DNA of 54,421 bases from Deltaproteobacteria bacterium (GTDB lineage Bacteria > Myxococcota_A > Polyangia > JAAYKL01), in assembly GCA_030591725.1 (NCBI GenBank), contig JAUVAN010000001.1:1-54421 (forward strand), given 5' to 3'. The first letter of the stretch is position 1; each line of letters starts with the position of its first letter. The position numbers and the translations under genes were made by a program. This document shows positions 2,974 to 43,025 of this stretch, in pieces. The notes under the pieces are model-generated. The model was given only the letters and a program-made list of their open reading frames with translations, had not been told where the DNA came from and did no database searches.

Positions 2974-5900
2974 ATGAAGCGACGTTTGAAGATCATAGGG
3001 AGCGACAGTGTAAAAGGCGGCGGGCCTTCGAAAGGTCCGCCCGTGGAACCCGAGAGTCCGGACAACGACGGATTCTCCATGCATTTTTCCGGCGGGCGCG
3101 GTGTACTGTGCCTCAACGGCGAAAAAATCTCCCCGGCGGTCACAGTGGACCTGTTGGAGATGAACATCCCGCAGATAGCATTTCCGTTTGATGTTTCCAG
3201 AGGTGTAAGAGGTCTTCGGGACCGACGGTTGAAACTGTCGAGGCTGGTGATGACCGTTAGCCTCGAGGGGTTGATGGAGATTCTTGGTACGAAGCTCCGT
3301 GGTCTGGACTGGATCGGCTCGCCCATAATTTCTTTCGAGGAAGATTGCATCAGCGTTCTGCTGGAATACGGTCCCGAAGGATCCCGCATCCCCTTCACTT
3401 TTCGTCTGTTGCCCTCCGGGGAGGAACGCTTGCCGTCTCTCCTGATGGACGAGCCGAGGGCGTACGGCCCGGTCCCCATGTCTCTTCTCCTGGTTGCGGG
3501 AACGGTGCTCCGGGAAGTGACGGGCGCCAGGCTCGAGGGAGTCGGGTTTCGCCCGCCGGATCCCCTGAAGGAGGCGCTGATGGCGATTCTTCCGGGGCGG
3601 GGCTGGCGGCTGCCGGACTACTCCGACGCGGCGCTTGTTCGACTGGATCTCGAGCCGGACCGGGTGGTCCTCGAATTCAACGGGGCCGACCTGCTGCGCG
3701 AGCGTGGCGACGCGGATGTGGGAGAGGTGGGAATGAGCCGCCTTCGAAGGCTGGAGGAGCTGAGGCTCACCCGGGACGGGGACAGGCTGCTGGGGGTCGG
3801 TGAGCTGGAAGAGGCACGCGCGTCCTATGCCCGACTCCTGGACCGGGAGCCGGAAAATCCGGTGGCGGCGGCTCGCCTCGCGATGATCGACGTGATGGAT
3901 CCGCAGATGAGGGATACGGCAAGGGCAGTGGCATCGGATGCGCTGGCCAGGCGGGGTCGCAGGACCGACGTCCTGGCTGTGATCGCTCACGGAGCGGCCC
4001 TGGAGGGAGACGTCGCGGCGGAGGTGAACGCGCTGGAGGCGCTTGAGGAGTCGTCCTTTCCCCTGGAGCGCCTGGCCGCAGGGCTCCGCCTCGGCGAGCT
4101 CGTAAGGAACGAAGATCCCGACCGCGCCATAATGTTCTTCGAGGGGGCTCTCGCCGCCAGACGGGAAGATCCGCGGGCGTTGATTGCTCTCATCGAGACC
4201 GGCGCCGCTGCGGGCAGGAAGGACATGGTCGACCGATTGATCTCCCGGTGGATCGCGGTGCACAGGACTCCTGCAGGCAGGGCCGAGGCTCACGCGAAGA
4301 TCGGTGAGCTCCTCCTTCAGAAACTGGGGGATCCCGCAGCTTCGGTGAAGCACCTGGAGCGCGCGGCCCTCGCGCAGCCTGGCAGCAAAGAGATCATGTG
4401 GGGGTTGGCGCAAGCCCTGGCCGGAGCGCGGGATGATCGCCGAGCCATCTCCAGGTTCGAGCGCCTGGAGAAGATCTCCATCGAGGCGGGAGATCAGGCG
4501 GGAGCGGCTCGAGCCATGGAGGCTATTGGAAAGATATGGATGCGCCGTGGCGAGCCGGAGCTGGCTATCCCACGGTTGCGGGAAGCGCTTGCCGCCTACG
4601 GAGAAACACGGCCGCCGGCGACGATGGTAAATCTGGCTACCGCGCTTGGAGCCCTGGGCCAGTTTGCCGATGCGGCGGATATGTTCGAGGCCGCCCTGTC
4701 GCGAGCGCGGCCGGCGGAAGCAGATTTTTCCTGGGGCGATACCGCGCTGGATCTGGCCCGCATATACTTCGAGGAGCTCGACGACGGGAAGGCTGCAGAG
4801 CAGTGGATCCGTGCGGCCATGAACCTCGAACAGAGCAAAGACTCCGCCGGCGCTCTCATGCGGGACATACTGAAGCGCCAGGGCAGATGGACGGAGTTGA
4901 CCAGATCTCTCGAGCGCGTACTCGTCTCCGAACCGTCCGTCGAGAACGTGCTGGCCCTGAACAGGGCGAGGATCAAGGCTGGCGAGGTGGAGGCGGCGGT
5001 GTCCACCCTGGAGACAGCCCTCGAACGGCACCCCGAGCGGGAGGATCTCCTCGACGCCTTCATCGAGGCGTGCCGTGAGGCTGGAGAGCGATCCCGGCTC
5101 AAGACGATATTGCAAAAGCGTTTCGAGACTTGTACGGAGCCCGCCAGAAGGGCGGCCATGGCCACGGAGATCGGGTCCCTCGAACTGACGGCCTTCGAAA
5201 ATCCGCAGGCCTCCGCACACTGGTTTCGGCAGGCGTTGGAGGATGACCAGAGTATCCTCGAGGCGAGGAAGGGGCTCGTGGACGCACTCGGGAGGCTCGG
5301 CGGTTCCGATGAGATGGAAGTGCAGATAGAGGCCCTCGAGCGCGATCTGTCGGCACTGGGCCGGCGTTCGGACGCGGCCGCCCTGATGGCTCGAAGGGCG
5401 GCGATCCTCGCGAAGGATGGCGAGTCGGGCCGCGCCGCAGACCTGATGAGGAAGGCCCTTCCTGATCTTCCCGGCGAGGACAGGTGCCGGGCGCTCATCG
5501 AGATGGCGACCCTTTACCAGAAGTCAGGAGACCACGCGACCGCGAGGGATCTCTACATCGCTGCAAGGAGAGAGCACGGGGCGGATGAAACGTACGTTGC
5601 CGCCCTCGGCGAGGCCGAGACCGCGCTCGAGATGAAGGATTATCCGGCTGCGCTGGAGGCAGCGACGATAGCGGGTTCAGGCCCGGTCGAGCTTCGAACG
5701 AGGGCTGCAATGGCTGCGGCAAGGTCTCTGGATCATCTGGAGCGGAGCACGGAGGCGGCCCGGATTCTGGAGCGGGTTGCCGAGAATGTCGATGCCCGGG
5801 ATTCCATCGAACTCCTCATGTTGGCGGCGCATATCTACGGGAACAAGGTAGGCGACAACGTAAACGCTCGCGAGATGCTCGAGCGCCTGCTGGAGATCAA

Positions 5901-8433
5901 CCCGCAACATGAAGAGGCGAGGAAAGCCCTGGTCGAAACTCTGGAGAGGTCCGGTGACAGGAGCGAGTTGGCCCGGGGACTCGTCCGGTTTGCGGAAGAA
6001 GGAGAGCTGGGAATAGCCGATCTCAAGAGGGCGGCGGATTTCTTTTCCGCCGAGGGCCTTCACGAGGACGCGGCTGCCGCGCTTCGAATCGCCCACGGGA
6101 TCTCTCCTGACCCGGAGTCTGCCCGGATGCTCGCCGGCGCCCTGAGGAGATGCGGCGCGTTCGAGGAGATGGTCGAGGTGTTGAAGGAGTTTGTGTCCAC
6201 TGACGACGCGTCGAGGAGGATGCTGGCGGTTCAACTGGAGGAAATGAGCCGGCACGGGGAGCTGGTCGAGTTACTGGGATCCGCGCAGGAGGAAGATGCA
6301 GATCGGGAGCGCGATCGGTTGGCAAAGCTGGCCGAGACCCTTGGTGATCATCTTGGAGATCGTCCGGGGGCGATCAACGCGCTTCTGGGAGTGCTGAATG
6401 TTACGGAGGACGCGCAGGATGGGCGCGATCTGGCCCGGAGAATCCTGGGGCTTGCGCGAGAAGAGGATGATCTTTCCCTGCTCGCGAGCTGCCTGGATCA
6501 GGTGGAGCGTTTCATGGCGCCCTCGCCAAGGGCGGGCGCCCTCTTTGAGCTGAGCGGGCTTCGCTGGATGTCGGGAGATCGGGAGGGATCGCGCGAGCCT
6601 CTGCGCAAGGGCCTCAAGCTTGCGCCGGACGATCTGCCGGCTCTGTTTGAGATGGCAAGGCGTTTCGACAAGTGCGACGTCTTGTTGAACGGCGCCGTGA
6701 AGCGGGCGATTCAATCCGAACAGTGGGAGATCGCCGACGAGATGCTGTCGCTGATCATCGATGCCTCCTCTGACGAGGATCGGCCCGGCCTGTTACGCAG
6801 GCGAGCGGCCATTCGGAGGGGAAGGCTGGGAGACGAGAAAGGCGCGGTCGAGGACATGTTGTCGACGCGGGCCGCAGGCGCGCTCCCCGAGGTGGAGATG
6901 GAGGAGCTCATCGACATGCTCGAGGCAAGGGGAGACGTGGGAACAGCCGCCGAGGTGGCCGCAGAGATCGCCCGGGGATCGATGAAGGACGGGAGGCGTC
7001 TCGCTCGTGCTGCCAAGCTTGCGCAGGAAGCGGGGAACCACGACAGTGCCGTGGAAATCTGGCGTCAGGCAATTGCTGTCAACCCGGATCCCGCAGGCAT
7101 CGTTTCCCTGGTCAAACTCCTGGATACCAAGAAGGACGGAGAGGAACTGGAGAAGCTGCTGGAAATGTTGAAGGGGCAGGAGGATCTGCTGGACATCCCG
7201 GATCACATGCTGATTCTGGAGGTGGTAGTGGATCTGGATCTTGCGCGGGGACAGGATCTCGACGCGGTGGAGGGGCTGGTGGCCATGATGGATCTGGATC
7301 CCGGCAAGGGGGATCCCTGGCAGAAGATGGTTCATATCCTGGAGCGCCGAGGAGAATGGGAGGCGCTGGTCAAGCGAATGGAGGAGCGGCTTACCCTTGC
7401 GGCCGGTCCGGACGACGTCGCGAGGACCGCCATGGCCCTCGGTCGTATTCTCGATGACAAGCTAGGCAATGAGGACGGCGCCGTCGCCGCCTTCGAGCGT
7501 GTTCTTTCCGTCATGCCGGAACATCCGGGCGCCAGCATGATGCTCGCGGCCATCGCCTTCAGAAGGCAGCGCTGGGACCAGCTGGACAAATATCTTTCGG
7601 TCATTGAAACCACAGAGTGGAACACGGAGGTCGAGCTGTGGCGTGCCCGGACGGCCGAGAACCTGGATCGTACCGAAGAAGCCGGATCCATCTTCGAGGA
7701 GATTGTGAGAAGGGAGCCGGGACAGGTGCGCGCAGTTGAGGGGCTCATGCGGGTTCTGACCGGTCCGAAGTACGACGTAAAGGTTATCGAGGTGGGGCGA
7801 AATCTCATCGAGGAGGTGGGTCGGGAAAAGATCAAGGCGTCGGTGCATCGACGGATAGGCCTTGCCCACAAACGTTCAAACGAGCCGGATGCGGCGATGG
7901 AGAGGCTCGAATACGCGGACAGGATCTCGGGCGGCGATCCCGAATCGTTGAAGTTGCTGGTTGATCTGCACGGTGAGGCGGGACGCCACGAGAAGCGTGC
8001 CGAGTTGTTGTGCAAGCTCGCTTATATGCTCGAGGGTCCCGACCGGGCTGCGCGCCTGGTTGAGGCATCGAGAATCTACCTGGAAAAGCTGTTCGACGAA
8101 AAGAGGGCCTACCATTGGTTGACGCGCGCCTCGGAGATGGCTCCGGATGAACCTGGTGTTCTGCTGGCCCTGGCTGATTGCGCCTGGGTCATGGAGGAGG
8201 CCGCGGTGGTGGTGAAAAGCCTCGAACGATACCGTCTGGTGGCGCCGCAGCATCCGGTGGGACCGAGTCGCACTTATCATCTGGCGGCGTCCCTCGCCGT
8301 GACCCGCGACTGGCCGATCGAGGATATCATCGAAACCCTCGAACAGGTCGTCGACCGACTCGATTCGGAGGAGCGACAGACCGCGAGGACACTCGTGGGC
8401 CGGCTGCGGGCCGAGCTGGAAAATAGCAAATGA
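2974..8433 (+). CDS. Giant (1819 aa) TPR/helical-repeat protein with a non-repeat N-terminal domain of about 250 aa
   Basis: Single uninterrupted ORF with Ala/Leu/Glu/Arg-rich 34-aa-type repeats throughout (for example GELEEARASYARLLDREPENP). No P-loop or catalytic motif found. Its stop overlaps the prmA ATG (ATGA at 8430-8433). Confidence 0.85.
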   Translation: MKRRLKIIGSDSVKGGGPSKGPPVEPESPDNDGFSMHFSGGRGVLCLNGEKISPAVTVDLLEMNIPQIAFPFDVSRGVRGLRDRRLKLSRLVMTVSLEGLMEILGTKLRGLDWIGSPIISFEEDCISVLLEYGPEGSRIPFTFRLLPSGEERLPSLLMDEPRAYGPVPMSLLLVAGTVLREVTGARLEGVGFRPPDPLKEALMAILPGRGWRLPDYSDAALVRLDLEPDRVVLEFNGADLLRERGDADVGEVGMSRLRRLEELRLTRDGDRLLGVGELEEARASYARLLDREPENPVAAARLAMIDVMDPQMRDTARAVASDALARRGRRTDVLAVIAHGAALEGDVAAEVNALEALEESSFPLERLAAGLRLGELVRNEDPDRAIMFFEGALAARREDPRALIALIETGAAAGRKDMVDRLISRWIAVHRTPAGRAEAHAKIGELLLQKLGDPAASVKHLERAALAQPGSKEIMWGLAQALAGARDDRRAISRFERLEKISIEAGDQAGAARAMEAIGKIWMRRGEPELAIPRLREALAAYGETRPPATMVNLATALGALGQFADAADMFEAALSRARPAEADFSWGDTALDLARIYFEELDDGKAAEQWIRAAMNLEQSKDSAGALMRDILKRQGRWTELTRSLERVLVSEPSVENVLALNRARIKAGEVEAAVSTLETALERHPEREDLLDAFIEACREAGERSRLKTILQKRFETCTEPARRAAMATEIGSLELTAFENPQASAHWFRQALEDDQSILEARKGLVDALGRLGGSDEMEVQIEALERDLSALGRRSDAAALMARRAAILAKDGESGRAADLMRKALPDLPGEDRCRALIEMATLYQKSGDHATARDLYIAARREHGADETYVAALGEAETALEMKDYPAALEAATIAGSGPVELRTRAAMAAARSLDHLERSTEAARILERVAENVDARDSIELLMLAAHIYGNKVGDNVNAREMLERLLEINPQHEEARKALVETLERSGDRSELARGLVRFAEEGELGIADLKRAADFFSAEGLHEDAAAALRIAHGISPDPESARMLAGALRRCGAFEEMVEVLKEFVSTDDASRRMLAVQLEEMSRHGELVELLGSAQEEDADRERDRLAKLAETLGDHLGDRPGAINALLGVLNVTEDAQDGRDLARRILGLAREEDDLSLLASCLDQVERFMAPSPRAGALFELSGLRWMSGDREGSREPLRKGLKLAPDDLPALFEMARRFDKCDVLLNGAVKRAIQSEQWEIADEMLSLIIDASSDEDRPGLLRRRAAIRRGRLGDEKGAVEDMLSTRAAGALPEVEMEELIDMLEARGDVGTAAEVAAEIARGSMKDGRRLARAAKLAQEAGNHDSAVEIWRQAIAVNPDPAGIVSLVKLLDTKKDGEELEKLLEMLKGQEDLLDIPDHMLILEVVVDLDLARGQDLDAVEGLVAMMDLDPGKGDPWQKMVHILERRGEWEALVKRMEERLTLAAGPDDVARTAMALGRILDDKLGNEDGAVAAFERVLSVMPEHPGASMMLAAIAFRRQRWDQLDKYLSVIETTEWNTEVELWRARTAENLDRTEEAGSIFEEIVRREPGQVRAVEGLMRVLTGPKYDVKVIEVGRNLIEEVGREKIKASVHRRIGLAHKRSNEPDAAMERLEYADRISGGDPESLKLLVDLHGEAGRHEKRAELLCKLAYMLEGPDRAARLVEASRIYLEKLFDEKRAYHWLTRASEMAPDEPGVLLALADCAWVMEEAAVVVKSLERYRLVAPQHPVGPSRTYHLAASLAVTRDWPIEDIIETLEQVVDRLDSEERQTARTLVGRLRAELENSK

Positions 8434-10538: not shown

Positions 10539-13214
10539 ATGTCAGCGTTAAGCTCACTATTGGTTCAAGATCTAATCCTGAGCGTTAACCACGTGGAGCA
10601 AATTCTACAGCGTCAGGTGATCTACGGTGGTGACCTCGCCACAAACATTCTGGAGATGAACCTCGTCGATGAGGTAGTCCTCTCAAAATACCTCGGCCGC
10701 GTCGTGAGACTCCCCGTTTTTCCTTCGGAATACTTGCTTTCGACAGAGCCGAGCATCATCGAGAAGTTGCCCTGGAAGGTCGCCAATGAGCGGCGGGTGA
10801 TACCTGTACATATCAAAGACGACGTCGTAACGGTGGTCGCATCCGGCCCTGTTCCCCGGGGAACCCTGGATGAACTTTCCGAGTTGTTCGGAATGAAGGT
10901 CGAGCCGAATCTGGTTCTGGAGTTCCGCCTCGCGATGGCCCTCAATCGTTTTTACGGTATTCCCATGGTGGCCAGGTTGGCCGCGATACAGGCGAAGCTG
11001 GCACCCGAGTTCATGCAGGATCAGCCCTCGCTGGTGCCCGAGCCACCGGCTGATTCCAGTCCGATCGCCTCGACGCCGTCCGAAGACCAGACCACTTCTG
11101 TGGAGGCGGTTGACGAGGCGGAAGGTTGGGGGGAGGTGACCTGCCAGGAGCCCGCGCTGGTGATCGAATCCAAAAACGAGTCACTGCGCCCGGACGAATC
11201 CACCATGAAGTTCATTACCGGTTCAAGGGAGAGCACCCGGAAGGTCGTGGAGCTGGGTCATGCCTTTGATACGACCAGGCAAACCAGGAAACTCAAAAAG
11301 GACAAGCCTGTCTCGGCGCCCCCGAAGATCAGTTTCTCAAGGGCGACGGAGTTGTTGGAGGTTGCCAAGGGTCGGGACGAAATACTGGATATTTTCTTCT
11401 CCTTCGCGAGCCAGGCCTTCGAGTTCACCGCGTTGCTGCTGGTTCACGGCAAGATCGCGGAGGGACGAACGCTGGTTTTCAGGGGAAAAGAGCCGGAGCC
11501 GGCGGGTCATGTCCGTGTGTCGCTCGATCAGGATGGAATGTTTCAGAATGTCTTCGAAACCCAGGGGTTCCATCTCGGGCCCGCCGGGATTACGCAGGCC
11601 GACGTGGATCTGCTCTCCTTGCTCCGGCGCGATGCGCCCAAGAGCTGTGCGGTTATACCTATTTTTCTGCGCGGACGTGTGATCCTCATGCTTTATGGAG
11701 ATTCCGGCCAGCGGGGTGTTCGAGCCAACAGGATCACCAGGATCGCCGATTTCGGAAGGGTGGTGGGGCAGGCCTTCGAGAGGATTCTGCTGAAGCAGAA
11801 GTACAGCCAATACGAAAAGACCAGTACCTCCGATGATGGCAAGGTTCCGGCAGCCTCCGTCAAGGTGGAGCCTCGCAAGAAGGATTTTTCCGGATGGGCG
11901 AGCAGCACAAGCGCAGCCGACATCAAAAGTGAGCCGGAAAAGAGCGAGCCGGAGAAGAACGAGCCGGAAAAGAGCGAGCCGGAAAAGAGCGAGCCGGAAA
12001 AAGCGGTGGTCATGATAGCGCCCGCCAAGATGATCTCTGCCCCCACCGAGCCGGCGGGGCTGATTCCTCTGGCCGAGCGAACCACCGAGGCGCCTCTTGC
12101 GATAAACAATATTGCGCCTGTTTCTGCGCCGCCCGATCCCGATCTGGTGAAGAGGGTGGAAGTGATCGATTCCAGGAATGTAGTTCCTGCGGGGCTCGCC
12201 TCCGAAGACCCCATGCGGTTCGAGGAGCCCAAAAAAGTGCTGGACGTGGAGACGGTTCCCATCGAACAGCCCAAGCTGGTGGTCGATGTTACGAGCTTTC
12301 CGTCGCCCCTTCCCTCGTCCGTTCAGGTGGACATGCAGGAAGAGGTGGACAGACTGGTGGAGCGAGTGCTCTCGCTGGGAACTTTCGATGAGGTCGCCGC
12401 CGGGCTGCTTGTCGGGATCGGTGACGACGCCCTGCGTGTCCTTATCAAGCAATTTCCAGGACCGTTGAACTTCGATCGCTACCAGGGGACCAGCAAGTTG
12501 CGGTTGGTGGGCCAGCACGGTCCGTTGCTGCGGACGATGTTGATGTTCGGGAGATCCACCACGGCGCATTTGCTGCCGTTGCTGGACAGCCTGGATTCCG
12601 AGGTGCGTTTTTACACGGTGTTCCTGCTGACGGAGATCTCCATGCCCGAGGCGTTGTCCGGTCTGGCAAAGCGGATCTTCGACAACGACAGGCAGATCAG
12701 GGCCCTGGCCATCGATGCGATGAAAGGGCTTGCGTCTTTCCCCGAATACCGCTGGGCTGTCGTGGACGTGGCCTCGGTTTTGACGAGTTCTACGTCCACT
12801 CTCGAGAAGAAAAGGTTGGCGGCGGAGGCCCTCGGTGAGCTTCGCGATCCGGTGTCGATTCCGTCGCTGTCCGAGATGCTCGGTTCTGTTGACGGTGTTC
12901 TCGCGGAGCGATGTCAGAGATCTCTTGTAAATATCACGTTCACCGATTTCGGTTTTTCCGAGCGGCGATGGCTATCCTGGTGGCAGGCCAACAAGCGCAA
13001 GCATCGCATCGAGTGGGCCGTGGGCGCGCTCAATCACCGGGTCGAGGATATCAGGCGGGCGGCGCTGGAAGATCTGCACAAGATGGTCGATGGAGCTGTC
13101 GAGTGGCCCAGGGAGCCGCTCGATCACAAGCAGCGCCGAGAGTTGAAGAGAAGGTGCCTTCAATGGTGGGAGCGCGAGGGGCGCGCCCTGAATCAGGTAG
13201 TGGAAGTTGATTGA
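10539..13214 (+). CDS. 891-aa multidomain protein: T2SSE_N/MshEN-like N-domain, GAF-like core, (S/N)EPEK repeat linker, C-terminal HEAT-like repeats
   Basis: The N-terminal 140 aa have the MshEN/GspE-N pattern (two 24-aa hydrophobic heptad-like motifs 5 aa apart, then VIPVHIKDDVVTVVAS). Residues about 270-410 look GAF-like (AVIPIFLRGRVILMLYGD). The C-terminus has HEAT-type ALGELRDPVSIPSL. Confidence 0.8.
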   Translation: MSALSSLLVQDLILSVNHVEQILQRQVIYGGDLATNILEMNLVDEVVLSKYLGRVVRLPVFPSEYLLSTEPSIIEKLPWKVANERRVIPVHIKDDVVTVVASGPVPRGTLDELSELFGMKVEPNLVLEFRLAMALNRFYGIPMVARLAAIQAKLAPEFMQDQPSLVPEPPADSSPIASTPSEDQTTSVEAVDEAEGWGEVTCQEPALVIESKNESLRPDESTMKFITGSRESTRKVVELGHAFDTTRQTRKLKKDKPVSAPPKISFSRATELLEVAKGRDEILDIFFSFASQAFEFTALLLVHGKIAEGRTLVFRGKEPEPAGHVRVSLDQDGMFQNVFETQGFHLGPAGITQADVDLLSLLRRDAPKSCAVIPIFLRGRVILMLYGDSGQRGVRANRITRIADFGRVVGQAFERILLKQKYSQYEKTSTSDDGKVPAASVKVEPRKKDFSGWASSTSAADIKSEPEKSEPEKNEPEKSEPEKSEPEKAVVMIAPAKMISAPTEPAGLIPLAERTTEAPLAINNIAPVSAPPDPDLVKRVEVIDSRNVVPAGLASEDPMRFEEPKKVLDVETVPIEQPKLVVDVTSFPSPLPSSVQVDMQEEVDRLVERVLSLGTFDEVAAGLLVGIGDDALRVLIKQFPGPLNFDRYQGTSKLRLVGQHGPLLRTMLMFGRSTTAHLLPLLDSLDSEVRFYTVFLLTEISMPEALSGLAKRIFDNDRQIRALAIDAMKGLASFPEYRWAVVDVASVLTSSTSTLEKKRLAAEALGELRDPVSIPSLSEMLGSVDGVLAERCQRSLVNITFTDFGFSERRWLSWWQANKRKHRIEWAVGALNHRVEDIRRAALEDLHKMVDGAVEWPREPLDHKQRRELKRRCLQWWEREGRALNQVVEVD
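11928..12002 (+). repeat. 15-bp tandem repeat x5 encoding (S/N)EPEK
   Basis: AGTGAGCCGGAAAAG-type units encoding SEPEK SEPEK NEPEK SEPEK SEPEK, in frame within the 891-aa ORF. Confidence 0.95.
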
Positions 13215-16200: not shown

Positions 16201-17736
16201 CTCAAGCCAGATCACCTCACCTCAGACCGTACCAAGATCGATCTCCTGTTGGGCAACAAGGAGTTCGAGGATGCCGTTGGGACGATGATGGAGTTCACGT
16301 TCATCTGCGAGGATCCGGCGGAGAAGCGTTCAATGGTCTGGCGGGCAGCCGATGTGCTGTATGAAGATCAGGATGACCCACAGCAGGCGATCGAGGTGTT
16401 GACCGATCTCCTGAAAGAAGGTGACCGGCACCCACAGACCGAGCGACACATAGCAAAGATCGCGGGCGACAAGGGAATGTGGGATGAGGCCACGCAGGCC
16501 CTTTCGAGACTTGCCAATATGGTTACCGACCCTGAAAAAAGGGCGGAGGTCTTGACTGAACAGGCAAGGATTTTACTCGAGAAGATGTTCGATACCGACG
16601 CCGCGTCGGAGGTCATCGACAGTGCGTTGCAGGCCAATCCGTCCGCCGTGGATGCGATAAAGCTGACCCTGGAGTTCCGGGACGAGTCGGACGCCCAGCG
16701 GGTCCTCCACACGGCGCAGAAAAATCTGACAGGCAAGATCGATGAAAACCCCGTTGATCTGAAATCCATCACCGACCTCAAGGTGGTATCGAACCTTCTC
16801 AATGATGAGAATCAGGCTGCGATTTGCAGCGAAGGAATGGTGGTTCTACGCGGATCTCCCATGGAAAAGGGAGTTTCTTTTGCGTACGTGCCAGAGGAGC
16901 CCCCCGATCCTTCCGTGTTGATGAAGATGCTCAGGCACGATGGCGAGCAAGGTCAACCGGTTGCCGACATTGCCCTCATCGCTGCTCCGGTGACTGCTGA
17001 GGTGTACGCGCGTTCCGGACACATTCCGGATTTCGGTCGCTCGACCCTGGCGAGGAAGAAGAGCGCCGATCCGGTACTGGAATGGCTCCTGCCATGGGCA
17101 ACCGTGCTTGGAGTCAAGAAGTTCGAAGTTCATCGGGTGGGTCAGGATCCCCGAGGATCCAGACCTCTTCCGGCGTCGATCCCGGCCGTGGCGGTCAACG
17201 GCGATTTCTCCAACCTCGATCTCATCAGCGCGCGCTTCTTCATCGCACGGAACTTCTGGCGTTCCATGTTTGGATTGGGCTCCTTCGAGGAGGGTGACAC
17301 CGCGACGCCGATTCGATGGTTTCTGGCGCTCACCGCCGCGACACTAGGGGAGGATGCGAACCTGCCGATTTCCACGGATATGGACCTGGTTGTCAAGGCC
17401 AGGAAGGCGCTGTCCAGGAAGATACGCAAGGAACTGGTCGCTCCGTGCACCGCGCTCTTGTCCTGTAGTGCCATGGAGATTCGTACATGGGTGGCGGCGA
17501 CGTCCTTCTCGGCGGACAGGTTCGGTTTGCTGGCGGCGGGCGATCTTTCAGAGGTCATTCCCCTGATGGTAGAGGAATCGGCAGGCCCGCCAGGGTTGAG
17601 ACGACTTGCCGAGAATGCGAGCGATGCACTCTCGAAGGTACCCAGATGCACGGAGTTGATGAGATTTGCGCTTTGTGGCCCATACCTGGAGACGAGACGA
17701 ATTATCGGGTTGAGCGAGGTGAGCAACAGTGGATAG
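13207..17736 (+). CDS. Giant (1509 aa) helical-repeat (TPR-like) protein with a C-terminal non-repeat domain of about 260 aa
   Basis: Uninterrupted ORF. The TTG at 13207 overlaps the upstream stop by 8 nt; an alternative ATG lies at 13219. No enzymatic motif found. The C-domain is paralogous to that of the next gene. Confidence 0.85.
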   Translation: MIEEMNAVPDSDVAGYWAGIVSWLARELETADDPQVTSRLRHALFRVLFDRQDRAREAAQQIDAALQMESQSADIVWDALRASTGRDSRTQVEALERLILFLDRPGDIVACHLDIAHMRQRLLDDSQGARICMEAARLADPENRGILWRDLIDALASDDDPGLLSCLEAMAKVTTDPVWESTLLVEQIVVRRRMGDEDQELSELLNRILDLPDPCWTSVNEVFRVSGELSSWDVHVRALEIMVRVALEPVPEPVSGRPAGHVFDGFGRGERYAAGFYWLLSVVKERRLNDPDGAFEALNHALELFPDNNFLAMERARLLQVMGRFNEALDAIPYGASDVWKAEIALASGRKDLVADFIREVARIGSSLLYGVLVEIAGEGKGRTDEDVDPRDPARWLLANPAHPRAPDVAAKLIESDEYLPVAGLIVQESMDQGVRWPTDEDRQFGESWAKVVDVVTGPRRGESSAYLDWADTVESPDFEADLTAIAALAAEDKGDLERALQLCANARENLSDSSGVDRQIARLLRRMGKWRDLVEHLAVVSAESENPDNSIAALHERSMVLEFVLKEPAAVADSLQELISQDPENVPVLWSMVRVATRLLDWNQVLDHLRSVAQVMPDERGRLDLLCGEISLFALGGSDDAIAYLQSAKGSLSGPLCRTAQLYLDLAYHSRGDVQPLVQLLEEQLSQGDVGLVDLWFCELLESSRATSGNAALAQILDNDRIPEAISKLWSVILGDDSRRPSGAQESFAALTSVPGAVAGACKIASVLLDKDMNAGAKLEETDLEAPEALWLMADRLSDDADPDHRIDIYAKCVALTQGEDLDEWADWILCLAQAYEDKEDLEAAVSSLKKGLEKHPDHPGLMESLARVAFDAKLFQDSADAHEKLAGYYASPHEKATQLARAATILLTHLDDPRGAEVIAREAVKRSANHDAAHEILTVILREQRDDDALVQQIEERIGAEQDVDTLVELYEEQADRFFAVDDMEGALDAVEKILDLKPDHLTSDRTKIDLLLGNKEFEDAVGTMMEFTFICEDPAEKRSMVWRAADVLYEDQDDPQQAIEVLTDLLKEGDRHPQTERHIAKIAGDKGMWDEATQALSRLANMVTDPEKRAEVLTEQARILLEKMFDTDAASEVIDSALQANPSAVDAIKLTLEFRDESDAQRVLHTAQKNLTGKIDENPVDLKSITDLKVVSNLLNDENQAAICSEGMVVLRGSPMEKGVSFAYVPEEPPDPSVLMKMLRHDGEQGQPVADIALIAAPVTAEVYARSGHIPDFGRSTLARKKSADPVLEWLLPWATVLGVKKFEVHRVGQDPRGSRPLPASIPAVAVNGDFSNLDLISARFFIARNFWRSMFGLGSFEEGDTATPIRWFLALTAATLGEDANLPISTDMDLVVKARKALSRKIRKELVAPCTALLSCSAMEIRTWVAATSFSADRFGLLAAGDLSEVIPLMVEESAGPPGLRRLAENASDALSKVPRCTELMRFALCGPYLETRRIIGLSEVSNSG

Positions 17737-20700: not shown

Positions 20701-22270
20701 TATAGCCAATACTCGGTTGAGCAACGATGACAGGGAGGGCGCCAAGTCGAGCCTGGCGCAAGCGCTCGAACTCTTTCCATCGGATCTGGAAACCCACAGG
20801 TGGATGGCTTCCTTGCGAATGCAGGACGAGGAGTGGGAGGAGGCGATACACCACCTGATGGAGGCCGCGAAGAACGTCAAGGATCCGGAGACGGGGATGG
20901 AGGTGTTCTACGATCTTGGTGTGCTGTACATGGATCGGAGCGAGAGAAAGGACCTTGCGGAGAAGAGCTTTGTCAAGGTGCTGGGGTGGAGCCGCGATCA
21001 TTTCCTCGCCATGGAGCGATTGGGCGTGCTCTACATGTCGATAGGAAACTGGGGCCGCGCCGCGCAGGCGCTCGAGCGCGTCATCATGCTGGCGACGGAA
21101 ACGGAGATCAAGACAGCCAAGATGGTTGATCTGGCGCACGTCCTGGAAACCAATCTGAACAGGTCCAAGGACGCGGAGAGGGTTCTTTCCGAAGCGCGGC
21201 GAATCGATCCGTTGGACATCAGACCGGTGGAATATCTGGCGGGGATGTATACGCGGCAAAAAGACCCCATGGCCCTGAACGTTCTGCTGGATCAGGCGCT
21301 CACCACGCAAGCCTCGGCGATTGTCAAGAACCCGGACAACGGCGTTTTCTATTCCAACATGCTCTTCTTGTTGGCCCTGAAGTCGCAGGATGAGGTCGCG
21401 TCGCTGGCGGCGGCAGCCATGCGTATAGTCGGCGCCGAGCCGACGGAGCATTCAAAAACTGCGTCCGTGGAAAGCACATGGGAACTGGGAGCGAGGATAA
21501 GCGACCCGGTTGTAGAGGGGTACATCTGCCCCAAACACGTGCCCATCGGGATGAGGGCGACACTCCAGGCTGTCGAGGAACCCGTGGCAAAACTCTTCGG
21601 GTTCAGCGCCAAGCAGTTGGGGCTTGGTCGCGATGCTCGCGTGGACCGAAAGCTTCCGTTGCCCATGGCGATTGCCGAGCTGGCAACCACTTTTGGAATC
21701 AAACCCGAACCCGTAGTTTATGCGGGCGACGACAACGATATCCGTGTCATACCAGGATCTCCCTTCGCGGTGGTCGTGCCGACACATGTGGTCGGGTCCA
21801 CCGAGGATAACGTTGTCAGATTTGCAGCTACCTTTGCCGTGACGTCCATCAGGTGGGGAATTTCCCTCGCCACGATTCTCACGGAGCAGCAGCTACAGCA
21901 GGCCATCGGCGGCCTGGTCAGGTTGTTCGTTCCGGATTTCGCACCGACCGGCATGGACCCCTCCGTTCTTGTGAGCGTTTCGCAGAACCTCGATAAGGTT
22001 CTGACGGCGAAGATCAAGACGATCGTTCAGCCTTTTGCGTTCGACTGCGCCAGGGTGGTGGAAGTGGGCGATGTTCGCGAGAATATAGTCACCATGAGCC
22101 ACCGTGCCGGATTCCTGTCCACCGGTTCGCTCACGGGGTCCGTCGAGGCGCTTCGTGCAATTACCGGTAATCCGTCGGCGACGCTCGCTCAGTTGCCGGT
22201 GGTGGGTCGCATGATGGCATTCATCTTCAGCAAGGATCATCTGGAGCTGCGCAAGCGGATGGGCATCTAG
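17729..22270 (+). CDS. Giant (1513 aa) helical-repeat (TPR-like) protein with a paralogous C-terminal domain
   Basis: Uninterrupted ORF. The GTG at 17729 overlaps the upstream stop (17734-17736); an alternative ATG lies at 17843. TPR-like segments are present (for example WEEAIHHLMEAAKNVKDPE, GNWGRAAQALERVI). Confidence 0.85.
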   Translation: MDRNGTETPTSTILRQSEFFSTIATIGVYGEPPTRLVEMDADSEEVSDYVRGRVGALVENAKLNAEKLPEIAAGCLHQAGRFLDNKAKRPSEAWRCHGGALTILPGYRPALAAMRRLARRGGESDKLGVALNACIEVPGLPAETVTSLCEKSVVDLKSGSDASTLDSLREAVRVSPDSILPHLLKLGPAAREGDDHELIESLHAVADRCPDQRVSIVARMALVLVEERLGNLDAALERLAEIEPDEQNKTALAWLKVRLQIRTGALDEAARTLGDLRDGSGSEEFSLAVDRIRKAINALSLGERETDGSTVDSSWDIDLLCRWKSDDFGAEVKAAGAAVDFVSSDTMKAALFENTLLAAIDDDSGAEKIPKDVDRSTPRGRALALALREVDKDDATALLADPEVDPLGCLHAALTHGEDAVVINALEALGSKAEGETDRWDILVARAAVMRDAGTEPVKALEVLKNEANRIHKRPLASLVRLHDRTPESLASLALSQAGDVKNPDEKADMLSFAATHFEKFDPARAAELHREALSLCPTCLMALFALEREGSDHSSIAIALAAAAESSIDERDRAVSFVKSGVHHLASGVTSRALESFIKALKVAPGDEELRDSILRLAACHPDLLEDMDLLQPQDLENFSLERVLSLGALAFGLDAVAATRLFGKAIEIDPEDPVAVVGFTESALKSGRKSEESSRLLSLLRDASSPQEEAWVYLRIAQVDERYGQDVGAAMLSLMTLEEKLPGHRPTLGRLAMYYARQKRLQDLTWVVHALSNSLNDDEDAACAAMVAWRESMVDIEPLKIAVSRQPTSVLHLAYLEARTGDKGEQRACLESIVRQLGESVVHVSRLADLLEEGGEAQAALELRRQALENSPDSLLDLLGIERIQEREQDYPALIETLIRIAGTSKVKEFQIAKLLFAARLAQEQMNDPQRAARLCLEVLQKDPVNEEAFDRGKAILENVGDSIMMGRFLSARVEGVTDPARKHQLLIDIANTRLSNDDREGAKSSLAQALELFPSDLETHRWMASLRMQDEEWEEAIHHLMEAAKNVKDPETGMEVFYDLGVLYMDRSERKDLAEKSFVKVLGWSRDHFLAMERLGVLYMSIGNWGRAAQALERVIMLATETEIKTAKMVDLAHVLETNLNRSKDAERVLSEARRIDPLDIRPVEYLAGMYTRQKDPMALNVLLDQALTTQASAIVKNPDNGVFYSNMLFLLALKSQDEVASLAAAAMRIVGAEPTEHSKTASVESTWELGARISDPVVEGYICPKHVPIGMRATLQAVEEPVAKLFGFSAKQLGLGRDARVDRKLPLPMAIAELATTFGIKPEPVVYAGDDNDIRVIPGSPFAVVVPTHVVGSTEDNVVRFAATFAVTSIRWGISLATILTEQQLQQAIGGLVRLFVPDFAPTGMDPSVLVSVSQNLDKVLTAKIKTIVQPFAFDCARVVEVGDVRENIVTMSHRAGFLSTGSLTGSVEALRAITGNPSATLAQLPVVGRMMAFIFSKDHLELRKRMGI

Positions 22271-22293: not shown

Positions 22294-22848
22294 ATGCGCA
22301 TCGGAGTATTCGGCGGCACGTTCGATCCACCACACATGGGACACCTGGAGCTTGCCTCGATCGCCCTGGAGTCGGGTCTTATCGACCGGGTCATGTTCGT
22401 GCCGTGTTTGAGGCATGCGCTTGGAAAAACCCCTGCCGGGTTCGAGCATCGGTTTGCCATGTGCAAGGCGCTCGTGGGAGGTAAGGACAACATGGAGGCG
22501 TCGGACATCGAGAGCAGGTTGGATACAGGGGGAAGGACACTGGATCTCCTGAACGCGCTTGGGCATGAGTTTTCCGATGGCAATCTGCGCCTGCTTGCGG
22601 GGACCGACATCTATCACGAGCGCGATCGCTGGTATCGGTTCGATGAGGTGGCCCGGCTCGCGCCGCCCATTTACGTCGAGCGGCTCGGAGCGGACCCCAT
22701 CCCCCACAAGACGTTGGCGGCGCCGCGCATGGTAAGCTCGCGCGAGATTCGAAGGGTCGTCTCGGAAGGGCGCGTCCCGAAGGAGTGGATCACCGAGGCC
22801 GTTGCGGCGTATATCACACGGCATCACCTGTATGGGTACGGGACATGA
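22294..22848 (+). CDS. nadD: Nicotinate-nucleotide adenylyltransferase
   Basis: MRIGVFGGTFDPPHMGHL (the (H/T)xGH motif). 184 aa. AAGGAG SD upstream. Confidence 0.9.
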   Translation: MRIGVFGGTFDPPHMGHLELASIALESGLIDRVMFVPCLRHALGKTPAGFEHRFAMCKALVGGKDNMEASDIESRLDTGGRTLDLLNALGHEFSDGNLRLLAGTDIYHERDRWYRFDEVARLAPPIYVERLGADPIPHKTLAAPRMVSSREIRRVVSEGRVPKEWITEAVAAYITRHHLYGYGT

Positions 22849-41404: not shown

Positions 41405-42451
41405 TTGAAATTGAGAGAACCAGTAGTTTGGGCTGTCGCGCTGATCGTATTGGTCGGAGGATGGGGTTCCGTTGCCGTGGGGGAGGACGACGGGGTGCCT
41501 TCGATCATTGTCGTTCGCATGAGAGTAATCGTCCTTCGTGGCTCACCCGGACGGGCGCCCATCGTCGGTGGTGATGAAGCCGGTGTCTGGGAGGTGATTC
41601 GACATCAGGTCGAGGTGGTGAATCAGGTGATGTCCCAGTGTCACATTCGGGTGGGGGGGCCGGATGAGGTGGATATTGTGATCGCCGATCCGCCGGGTCC
41701 TTGCCTGCTCTCGGTGGGAGAAAAGTACGGGTTGCCATCTTCCGGGGGCGAGGTGAGGTTGATGCTCGATGGGGAAAAGCTGGGCCCCTGGAATATCGCC
41801 GGCGACTTGACTCCCGAGCAGACGGCCCGGGTTCTCTTTCGATACATCGAGGATGCCGGATTCAAACCCGATCTGACCGTCGGAATCAGGGGCCCCTCCG
41901 ACGCGTTTGCGCGAGCGGATCTGCTGGTGCGGCGCGTAGATGGGACGCTGGCCGAGATCGAACGGTGGCCACACGAACCGCTAACAACGGATTCGATGCA
42001 ATCCATTGACATTGGGATGGTTCGGCTGGACGACGGGCTCGAGTCATACGGGGTGAACGAGATTAACATTGGCACCCTCGAGGAGCGAACGCTTCTGAGG
42101 GCGTTGTCCAGCAAGGAGCCTGGAACCGTGGAGATCTTTATAGTCAATCGGTTCGCAGGATCACACAAGCAGGGAGAGTCGTTCATCGCTTCGTCCGCCG
42201 GGACTCTCGGGGACGCCGCCATCCTCGATTGGCGCGCCCTGGGGCGTGCGCGAACAGCGTATACGTTTGCTCACGAACTCGGGCACTTGTTGCTCGGGGA
42301 TCTTTCGCACCCTGATTCAAGGGGCGACCGAAGGACGTGGTTGCTCATGCACTCGCGCGCCAGTTCCGCAGTGGGGGGACCTGCGCGGATCACCGAAGAG
42401 CAGTGCACGAGAATGAGGGAGAGATGGGGGGAAATTAGAGCTTCTTTTTGA
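41405..42451 (+). CDS. Secreted HExxH-motif protein (putative zinc metallopeptidase)
   Basis: TTG start 3 nt after the previous stop. Signal-like N-terminus VVWAVALIVLVGGWGSVAVG. FAHELGHLLLGDLSHPD near the C-terminus. Confidence 0.6.
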   Translation: MKLREPVVWAVALIVLVGGWGSVAVGEDDGVPSIIVVRMRVIVLRGSPGRAPIVGGDEAGVWEVIRHQVEVVNQVMSQCHIRVGGPDEVDIVIADPPGPCLLSVGEKYGLPSSGGEVRLMLDGEKLGPWNIAGDLTPEQTARVLFRYIEDAGFKPDLTVGIRGPSDAFARADLLVRRVDGTLAEIERWPHEPLTTDSMQSIDIGMVRLDDGLESYGVNEINIGTLEERTLLRALSSKEPGTVEIFIVNRFAGSHKQGESFIASSAGTLGDAAILDWRALGRARTAYTFAHELGHLLLGDLSHPDSRGDRRTWLLMHSRASSAVGGPARITEEQCTRMRERWGEIRASF

Positions 42452-43025
42452 ACTTGAATGGCTTGTCGAAAACGGCGCGACCTCCTTCGGGTGCGGGGAA
42501 CTTCCATTTTCTTATAGTGCTCTTTACGCAGCCGGTCATGGTCGAATCGCCGACCGTATCTTTGTTCACGCCGATGCCCGTCACCTTGCCCTTCGGGGAG
42601 ATGGCGATGCGAAGATCGAGAGTACCTTCCAGCATGGGGTTCAGTTTGAGACGCCGTTCGTAACATGCTCTCACCTGGCTGAATCGCGAGTTGATGAATA
42701 CCTTGACCTGGCGCGCGTCGATCTTGCCCATTGGTTCCGATGCTTGACCCCTGGGGCGATTTCCCTTTGGGGGTTGTGGAACCTCGATAGCCACTGTCGA
42801 TCCGGCGTCCTGTGGCTTCTGTTCTATTGGATTCATATTGTCCGAAATTACGAGCGGGGCCGGCATTTCGATCGGCTCATCAATCACCGGAGGCGCATCT
42901 TTACGCCCGGTCGGAGCGGAGCGTTGCATGAAGAAAACCACGCCGGCGATTATCAGTATAATGACACCACCTGCGAGTAGGAGAACTATACCTTTGCTTC
43001 CTTGCGAACCTTGATTGTCAGCCAT
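42435..43025 (-). CDS. Membrane-anchored protein with an AgmX/PglI-type (TonB-C-like) C-terminal domain
   Basis: N-terminal TM IVLLLAGGVIILIIAGVVFF, a Pro-rich spacer, and C-terminal VRACYERRLKLNPMLEGTLDLRIAISPKGKV ... CVKSTIRKWKFP. Confidence 0.6.
   Translation of the reverse strand: MADNQGSQGSKGIVLLLAGGVIILIIAGVVFFMQRSAPTGRKDAPPVIDEPIEMPAPLVISDNMNPIEQKPQDAGSTVAIEVPQPPKGNRPRGQASEPMGKIDARQVKVFINSRFSQVRACYERRLKLNPMLEGTLDLRIAISPKGKVTGIGVNKDTVGDSTMTGCVKSTIRKWKFPAPEGGRAVFDKPFKFKKKL

Follow-up and report, generated by a model that had tools for sequence, protein, structure and literature searches.

The A and B genes and their shared C-terminal tail

The window analyzed here is a stretch of 54,421 nucleotides (contig JAUVAN010000001.1, assembly GCA_030591725.1 of a Deltaproteobacteria bacterium) that carries three overlapping genes on its forward strand. 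The last two, hereafter gene A (P0001, 13207–17736, 1509 amino acids) and gene B (P0002, 17729–22270, 1513 amino acids), were found as open reading frames and encode tetratricopeptide repeat (TPR) proteins with multiple Pfam matches above cut-off (TPR_19, TPR_14, TPR_16 and others). The first (P0003, 10539–13214, 891 amino acids) encodes a protein with an MshEN-like N-domain (4.5e-9 in Pfam) and HEAT repeats (HEAT_2, 6.7e-9); its stop overlaps the start of gene A, and the start of gene B overlaps the stop of gene A by 8 nucleotides. A and B end in a related tail, described in a first-pass annotation of the bare sequence as a private C-terminal domain of about 250 amino acids without catalytic motif. 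We report that this tail is a real, widespread and unannotated pseudopeptidase domain, whose fold is likely that of an M48-like gluzincin.

The collinear homology of the two tails is firmly established. The segments at 16957–17733 and 21539–22267 share 24% identity over 262 columns, with a BLASTP E value of 8e-6 under compositional adjustment, so that the homology stands after this correction. Their Smith-Waterman score is 85, against 32.8 ± 5.1 in 1000 shuffles (maximum 58, z 10.2, Gumbel p 8e-7), and both are predicted with confidence to adopt the same fold. The four segment pairs on which the first-pass annotation had based its alignment were all recovered in a MAFFT alignment of 32 orthologue tails. 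The length proposed for the shared unit was too short, since the conserved unit covers about 300 amino acids, corresponding to residues 1200–1509 of A (16804–17733, forward strand; profile match 16804–17718, E 4e-127) and residues 1204–1513 of B (21338–22267, forward strand; profile match E 9e-85). No Pfam TPR model matches the tail, in agreement with its earlier description as a non-TPR domain. The upstream repeats had been considered not obviously alignable, which is contradicted by BLASTP of the full-length proteins: it returns a single high-scoring segment pair of 693 columns (A 835–1502, B 868–1513, E 3e-18), and therefore the last ~350 residues of the TPR arrays can be aligned as well.

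A large domain family, also found at the end of GltI

A profile built from an alignment of 21 tails (A1) was searched against 1.84 billion representative proteins and matched 3132 clusters with an E value of 1e-3 or lower and 1675 with one of 1e-10 or lower. Of 176 proteins inspected, most of them 1500–2450 amino acids long, 175 have no more than 15 residues between the end of the domain and their C-terminus, and A and B conform to this rule. The only inspected protein with an internal domain (residues 710–996) is P0148, a 2297-amino-acid protein from an ENA metagenome, which may be the product of a gene fusion or of a missed stop. Named matches are from Myxococcota or Polyangiaceae. Within the window's phylum, to which the taxonomic survey was confined, the domain occurs in 159 of 301 sampled genomes, with 1–7 copies each on open frames of ~1500–4090 amino acids; some families have it in every sampled genome and others in none.

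The genome of the window (G000) itself contains a third copy, on contig C345 (L004, 104–5431, minus strand; profile E 5e-19). The protein concerned (P0036, 1775 amino acids) combines a weak match to EAD7, an effector-associated domain, with a Ser/Thr protein kinase domain, TPRs and the terminal tail, and is the only kinase fusion among the top 150 matches. Its gene is preceded by one encoding a MarR-like winged-helix protein (open reading frame 5567–6187 of the same contig). The profile search thus reveals a widespread terminal domain of TPR proteins, and the idea that it is private to two proteins must be abandoned: judged by the profile matches, the tail is one large Myxococcota domain family of which A and B are one member pair. 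It supplies a missing family definition for proteins now labeled merely "tetratricopeptide repeat protein".

This family includes the end of GltI. In one family of bacteria with 8–10 Mb genomes there is a single match per genome, located on a frame of 3900–4060 amino acids. In one of these genomes (G106) the carrier is a 4005-amino-acid TPR protein whose gene immediately follows two others, a GltH-like TPR gene and a GltG-like one (NF033760, 1e-126, with FHA and TonB-C parts), and we identified the protein as the GltI orthologue from its size and these neighbors. The same arrangement, gltG-gltH-gltI, has been described in Myxococcus xanthus (PMC3169522). The last 320 residues of this protein match A1 over positions 11–305 with an E value of 1.6e-17 (8e-11 in the genome scan). 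Because the tail of a GltI orthologue thus matches the profile end to end, the A and B tails are assigned to the same domain as the end of GltI (AgmK, MXAN_4863), the very large scaffold protein that serves the Agl-Glt gliding machinery in the cytoplasm. The genome of the window probably has a Glt-type machine too, since it contains a GltG-like gene (contig C451, 5612–7498, forward strand, a 636-amino-acid frame; E 3.7e-99, with a further N-terminal piece at 4e-38). A GltI-sized tail carrier was not found in this assembly, which is 86% complete and split into 513 contigs.

On a Kyte-Doolittle scan, neither A nor B has a transmembrane segment or a signal-like N-terminus (maximum 19-residue mean of 1.56 for A and 1.52 for B). 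Both proteins are predicted to be cytoplasmic because of this result and because the third copy of the tail stands on a protein with a kinase domain.

Predicted structure and resemblance to M48 peptidases

The two tails were modeled independently with AlphaFold2, giving a predicted local distance difference test score (pLDDT) of 91.8 and a predicted template modeling score of 0.91 for A, and 89.9 and 0.89 for B. The models share the same order of elements, namely an N-terminal helical part, a helix, three short strands, a long helix and a seven-helix bundle. In the A model, as assigned by DSSP, the helix spans tail positions 90–101 and the strands positions 108–111, 119–122 and 128–131, followed by the long helix at 141–155, SARFFIARNFWRSMF. 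The first of these helices, DPVLEWLLPWATVLG, and the three-stranded sheet behind it (FEVHRVG...IPAVAV) are encoded at 17068–17202 on the forward strand; in profile alignment the sheet is the counterpart of the NAFA and edge-strand region of M48 peptidases, and the helix takes the place of the backing helix.

Sequence searches do not assign the tail to any described family. No Pfam or NCBIfam family lies on it, whether the search is made with the full proteins, with the tails or with 21 tails even at E ≤ 10, and a search of the PDB sequences returned nothing (best E 1.1, a capsid protein). Two likenesses to M48 were noted from the alignment before any fold result was at hand: FLARNLWR, after the small sheet, recalls the M48 vlaHElgH, and S-x-S-A-D-R-x-G recalls the third-ligand motif E-x-x-A-D-r-x-G. 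When 170 tails were aligned with 24 M48 domains from related genomes using hhalign, a score of 27.9 (P 0.0034) was obtained over 193 aligned columns (tail positions 54–288), in the register predicted from the motifs, with the backing helix and the strands in place, R149 opposite the first M48 His and D238-R239 opposite the AD-r. Reversal of one side lowered the score to 12.1 and 13.7, and 60 block-shuffled M48 profiles reached at most 22.2. The decoy families scored 17.3 (Abhydrolase_1), 13.0 (APH) and 12.6 (M41/FtsH) against the tail. The tail does not match M41, so the signal is M48-specific rather than that of a generic zincin; the true zincin pair M48–M41 itself attained only 22.8.

Foldseek returned no match at E ≤ 0.001 against PDB or BFVD, and we used only the ranking of its matches. 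For the B model, BepA (6ait; E 0.19, probability 0.60) takes the top two places, followed by BlaR1 of family M56 (8exs), MATCAP, more BepA chains and selecase (4qhi, probability 0.41), with lethal factor lower; these top matches have E values of 0.19–1.7 and TM ≤ 0.24. For the A model, an M32 carboxypeptidase comes first in the PDB and a clostridial neurotoxin, itself a zincin, third, and the top six in BFVD include IrrE-like proteins, a poxvirus Zn-metalloprotease and "lethal factor" proteins. In both models the succession of elements is compatible with a minimal gluzincin peptidase, which has a backing helix, a sheet with an edge strand, an active-site helix and a helical bundle bearing the E-x-x-A-D motif. 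The tail fold is probably M48-like, of the M48/M56 gluzincin type, because the profile-profile comparison, the Foldseek ranking and the motif registers agree, each being a weak line of evidence and none sufficient alone. The domain, which the first-pass annotation did not recognize, would then be most likely a dead M48-like gluzincin; it does not belong to a well-known Pfam family at the level of hidden Markov models (HMMs), and is related to one only as a remote homolog devoid of the active site.

Loss of the zinc site

In the A tail, the helix A-R-N-F-W-R (17245–17262, forward strand) aligns with the A-H-E-x-x-H of M48 (hhalign register laR~L on LAHE~gH), so that both His are replaced by Arg and the Glu by Asn. 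The equivalent position in B reads T-F-A-V-T-S (21830–21847, forward strand), with all catalytic and ligand positions lost. The E-x-x-A-D-r-x-G motif corresponds in A to S-F-S-A-D-R-F-G-L-L-A-A-G-D (17503–17544, forward strand), where the Glu ligand is Ser and the Asp-Arg is kept, and in B to V-T-M-S-H-R-A-G-F-L-S-T-G-S (22088–22129, forward strand), where the Glu is Val and the Arg and Gly alone are kept. On this comparison, the B tail is the more degenerate of the two.

The same replacements extend through the 170 aligned tails. Where M48 has its first His, 81% of them have Arg and none has His; the catalytic Glu is retained in 42% and replaced by Asn in A and by Ala in B; the second-His position is occupied by Ala, Arg or Leu and never by His; and the third-ligand Glu is replaced by Arg, Ser, Leu or Ile, the Asp and the Arg (R239) of the motif being present in 61% and 98%. 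The family counterpart of HExxH can be written R-(E/N/A)-x-x-(A/R). No tail has HExxH at the aligned helix (P0055 has one elsewhere, which is irrelevant). The family conserves other residues, with G103 among the top columns together with R239, F288 (96%), S291 (90%), L285 (89%), R144 and R298 (84% each), G302 (82%) and R149 (81%), and a signature L-x-F-x-x-S-x-x-Y/H-x-x-L-R-x-x-x-G borne in A by the terminal helices LMRFALCGPYLETRRIIGL (17656–17712, forward strand), as identified from column conservation. There is no conserved His, Cys or Glu column in the tail family, which confirms that the domain has no catalytic motif. Because all zinc-ligand positions are replaced, the alignment indicates that the zinc site has been lost family-wide and that the domain cannot be a metalloprotease or any zinc peptidase, that is, it is a pseudopeptidase. 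The tail profile does not retrieve the three true M48 genes of the window's genome. On sequence grounds, A and B should not be filed as M48 members, because they lack all the catalytic features that define the family and its HMM does not match them.

Age of the A–B pair and gene neighborhood

Tandem pairs of such genes were also found in G240, G215 and G065, which belong to the same class, and on a contig from a distant metagenome-assembled genome (L020); the A tail encoded there shares 48% identity with that of the window. In all four, the upstream gene is closest to A and the downstream gene closest to B. A maximum-likelihood tree built from 31 tails unites the five B tails with their database relatives in a single clade (98/99) that includes none of the five A tails, and places the GltI and kinase-TPR copies outside (99/97). 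Orthologues of A, 1455–1516 amino acids long, occur in metagenome-assembled genomes of Myxococcota, and B-type orthologues share contigs with A-type ones (three contigs, of lengths 24122, 88707 and 11606, appear in both orthologue searches). Among the matches listed in the phylum scan, at least 12 genomes have two matches 5–9 kb apart on one strand. The occurrence of A-then-B pairs in distant genomes and the single B-tail clade bear out the ancient tandem duplication suggested in the first-pass annotation, and on this basis we place the origin of A and B before the divergence of the class. From their overlap, A and B are judged to be translationally coupled. They probably act as a pair, given this 8-nucleotide overlap and an adjacency older than the class divergence.

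Of these loci, only the window and L020 have the MshEN/HEAT gene in front of the pair. In L020 (JAAUYD010132047.1, 7519–19098), genes for the MshEN/HEAT protein (825 amino acids), A (1503 amino acids) and B (1529 amino acids) follow one another between flanks entirely different from those of the window. The retention of three genes amid different flanks argues for a single functional unit in that lineage. The MshEN/HEAT protein is ruled out as a universal partner: in G065, G240 and G215 the genes upstream of A encode a DUF4015 glycosyl hydrolase, an aromatic amino-acid lyase and a polyhydroxyalkanoate-granule protein. The linker of the MshEN/HEAT protein in the window contains, as seen in its translation, a fivefold in-frame SEPEK repeat (11928–12002, forward strand).

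Directly downstream of gene B lies a nadD-like cytidylyltransferase gene (22294–22848, forward strand; Pfam CTP_transf_like 4.4e-13), which we regard as context outside the system. A nadD gene also follows the pair in G065 (C2, L019, 640–1215), which belongs to a different family, and not in L020, G240 or G215; this position may be a remnant of an ancestral gene order. The upstream flank comprises a gene for a 1819-amino-acid TPR protein, prmA and rsmE. The TPR protein (2974–8433, forward strand) lacks the tail domain and its N-terminal ~260 amino acids have no Pfam match; the stop of its gene overlaps prmA, which in turn overlaps rsmE. Downstream of nadD are a DUF2520 gene and, further on, genes for DprA, TopA, a GidA-family (PF01134) protein, a Xer-type (XerC-like) recombinase, an HslU-like ATPase, DnaJ/DnaK and FtsI. 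The genes in the rest of the window are all housekeeping genes and provide no functional context. Also in the window is a 196-amino-acid open reading frame (42435–43025, minus strand) whose C-terminal part matches the TonB-C / AgmX-PglI type C-terminal region of the GltG model (E 3e-19).

Proposed role of the tail

A protease fold that selection maintains after the catalytic site is gone usually has a role in binding. We propose, by analogy with BepA, that the tail is a dead M48-like domain acting as a non-catalytic peptide-docking module at the end of TPR scaffolds, and give this reading a probability of roughly 0.55. The former substrate cleft would be kept as a docking site, where an extended peptide of a partner, or its C-terminus, could be bound as a strand added along the edge strand, in the way that the protease domain of BepA binds LptD. 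The arginines at the former zinc-ligand positions could recognize this peptide or C-terminus. Docking would fix one end of a cytoplasmic TPR superhelix of ~1200 residues, and different TPR arrays (those of A, B, the kinase-TPR protein and GltI) could plug into a common kind of partner while holding array-specific clients. The proposal draws on the loss of catalysis in a fold that has been kept, on the conservation of the sheet and of the helix beneath it, and on the precedent of BepA, in which the client is held on the edge strand next to the active site (PMC8423444). A shared class of partners is the simplest picture, because the same tail is found on very different TPR arrays.

Several observations weigh against this reading. 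PF01435 has no match in the full proteins at E ≤ 0.1 and none in 21 tails at E ≤ 10, and no single structural or profile match is significant (best Foldseek E values 0.17–0.19, TM 0.14–0.24; hhalign probability 9.6%). Docking by strand addition is argued from the analogy with BepA, and the placement of the cleft and of the arginines is predicted. The MshEN/HEAT neighbor is not conserved outside the close lineage, and GltI is single, so that pairing does not hold for the domain in general.

Other explanations of the tail were considered. The similarity of the two tails could be an artefact of composition or of helical repeats, the tail being an extension of the TPR array rather than a distinct domain, as the helix-rich nature of the proteins and the continuation of the homologous region into the TPR part might suggest; this is refuted, and we leave it practically no weight, by the composition-adjusted E value and the z of 10 against shuffles, by the conserved three-stranded sheet and non-TPR helices modeled with pLDDT > 90 (overall values as above), by the almost always terminal position of the domain, whose profile retrieves 1675 clusters at E ≤ 1e-10, and by the lack of a match to any TPR model of Pfam. 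The tail might instead be an oligomerization cap that self-associates rather than binding a foreign peptide, joining A to B or scaffold copies end to end, in which case its resemblance to gluzincins would be topological only. The permanent adjacency and coupling of A and B, the coexistence of their tails since before the class divergence and the fact that all structural matches fall below significance are in keeping with such a cap. We nevertheless hold it to be unlikely, as neither GltI nor the kinase-TPR protein, both of which have the domain, comes with a tandem partner, genomes have 1–7 copies with odd numbers included, and the M48 signal in hhalign, collinear over 193 columns, is stronger than that of any control.

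Less likely still is an enzyme or a small-ligand sensor working through other residues, in which Arg239 with Asp238, Arg144/Arg149 and Ser291 could provide a site for phosphate, nucleotide or carboxylate. The best-conserved polar residues are indeed arginines (R239, R144, R149 and R298), Ser291 is kept in 90% of the family, and the Glu of the HExxH position is retained in 42%. But B lacks R149, D238 and the Glu and is conserved with the same fold, the Arg of the M48 ADr motif is already part of a structural motif there, and the tail matches no nucleotide-binding or hydrolase motif and no Pfam, NCBIfam or PDB sequence. The docking reading can also be carried further: the tail would be a universal plug linking, through the former cleft, the TPR scaffolds of myxobacteria (GltI, A–B and kinase-TPR, 1–7 per genome) to one shared cytoplasmic hub, and A–B would be an undescribed scaffold system parallel to the platform of the gliding motor, wired in this lineage to a cyclic di-GMP-type MshEN/HEAT protein. 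We mention this extension as a speculation with a small chance of being correct.

Comparison with known systems

GltI resembles A and B in its cytoplasmic location and in bearing the domain at its very end, behind a long TPR array. It differs in size (~3400–4100 amino acids, against ~1510 for A and B), in being single where A and B form a conserved tandem pair, and in the position of its tail, which groups with the kinase-TPR copy in the tree, apart from A and B. Furthermore, A and B lie outside the glt cluster (gltG-gltH-gltI(-gltJ)), their neighbors being the MshEN/HEAT gene, prmA, rsmE, nadD and housekeeping genes. Judged by their size, their neighborhood and their place in the tree, A and B are not GltI orthologues, and they are paralogous to it in the tail only. 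Among the cytoplasmic parts of the Myxococcus focal-adhesion motor, GltI is the one least understood; PMC11761067 gives no function for its tail, and we found no paper classifying this tail in the literature on AgmK and on pseudoproteases, M48 and TPR proteins. The anonymous GltI-type tail now becomes a testable module, probably M48-like and without a zinc site, from a family of >3000 clusters that is also present on the A–B pair and on kinase-TPR proteins.

BepA (YfgC) of E. coli (PDB 6AIT), the best Foldseek match of the B model, combines an M48-type domain with TPRs, as A and B probably do. It is periplasmic and proteolytic, has the M48 domain before the TPRs and possesses an intact HExxH and Glu ligand, whereas A and B, predicted to be cytoplasmic, have the TPRs first and then the M48-like domain, with the three zinc ligands replaced and no match to PF01435. 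With the minigluzincins (selecase, proabylysin, projannalysin) and BlaR1/M56 the tail probably shares the minimal gluzincin topology of the backing helix, the small sheet, the active-site helix and the helices that follow. Those proteins are active zinc enzymes, selecase having ~110 amino acids and BlaR1 being embedded in the membrane, while the tail has an additional helical bundle of ~150 amino acids, an N-terminal helical extension of ~90 amino acids and no metal site.

A dead M48 domain on a bacterial cytoplasmic scaffold was not found in the literature searched. What this analysis adds is the size of the family, the conserved A–B pair and its age, the kinase-TPR architecture and the controlled profile and fold evidence. 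Pseudoproteases such as the iRhoms and the FtsH-like FtsHi have kept a protease fold and have lost the catalytic residues family-wide, which points to a role in binding or scaffolding. They differ from the tail in having other folds and working in other systems, and the tail adds a bacterial cytoplasmic example to this group.

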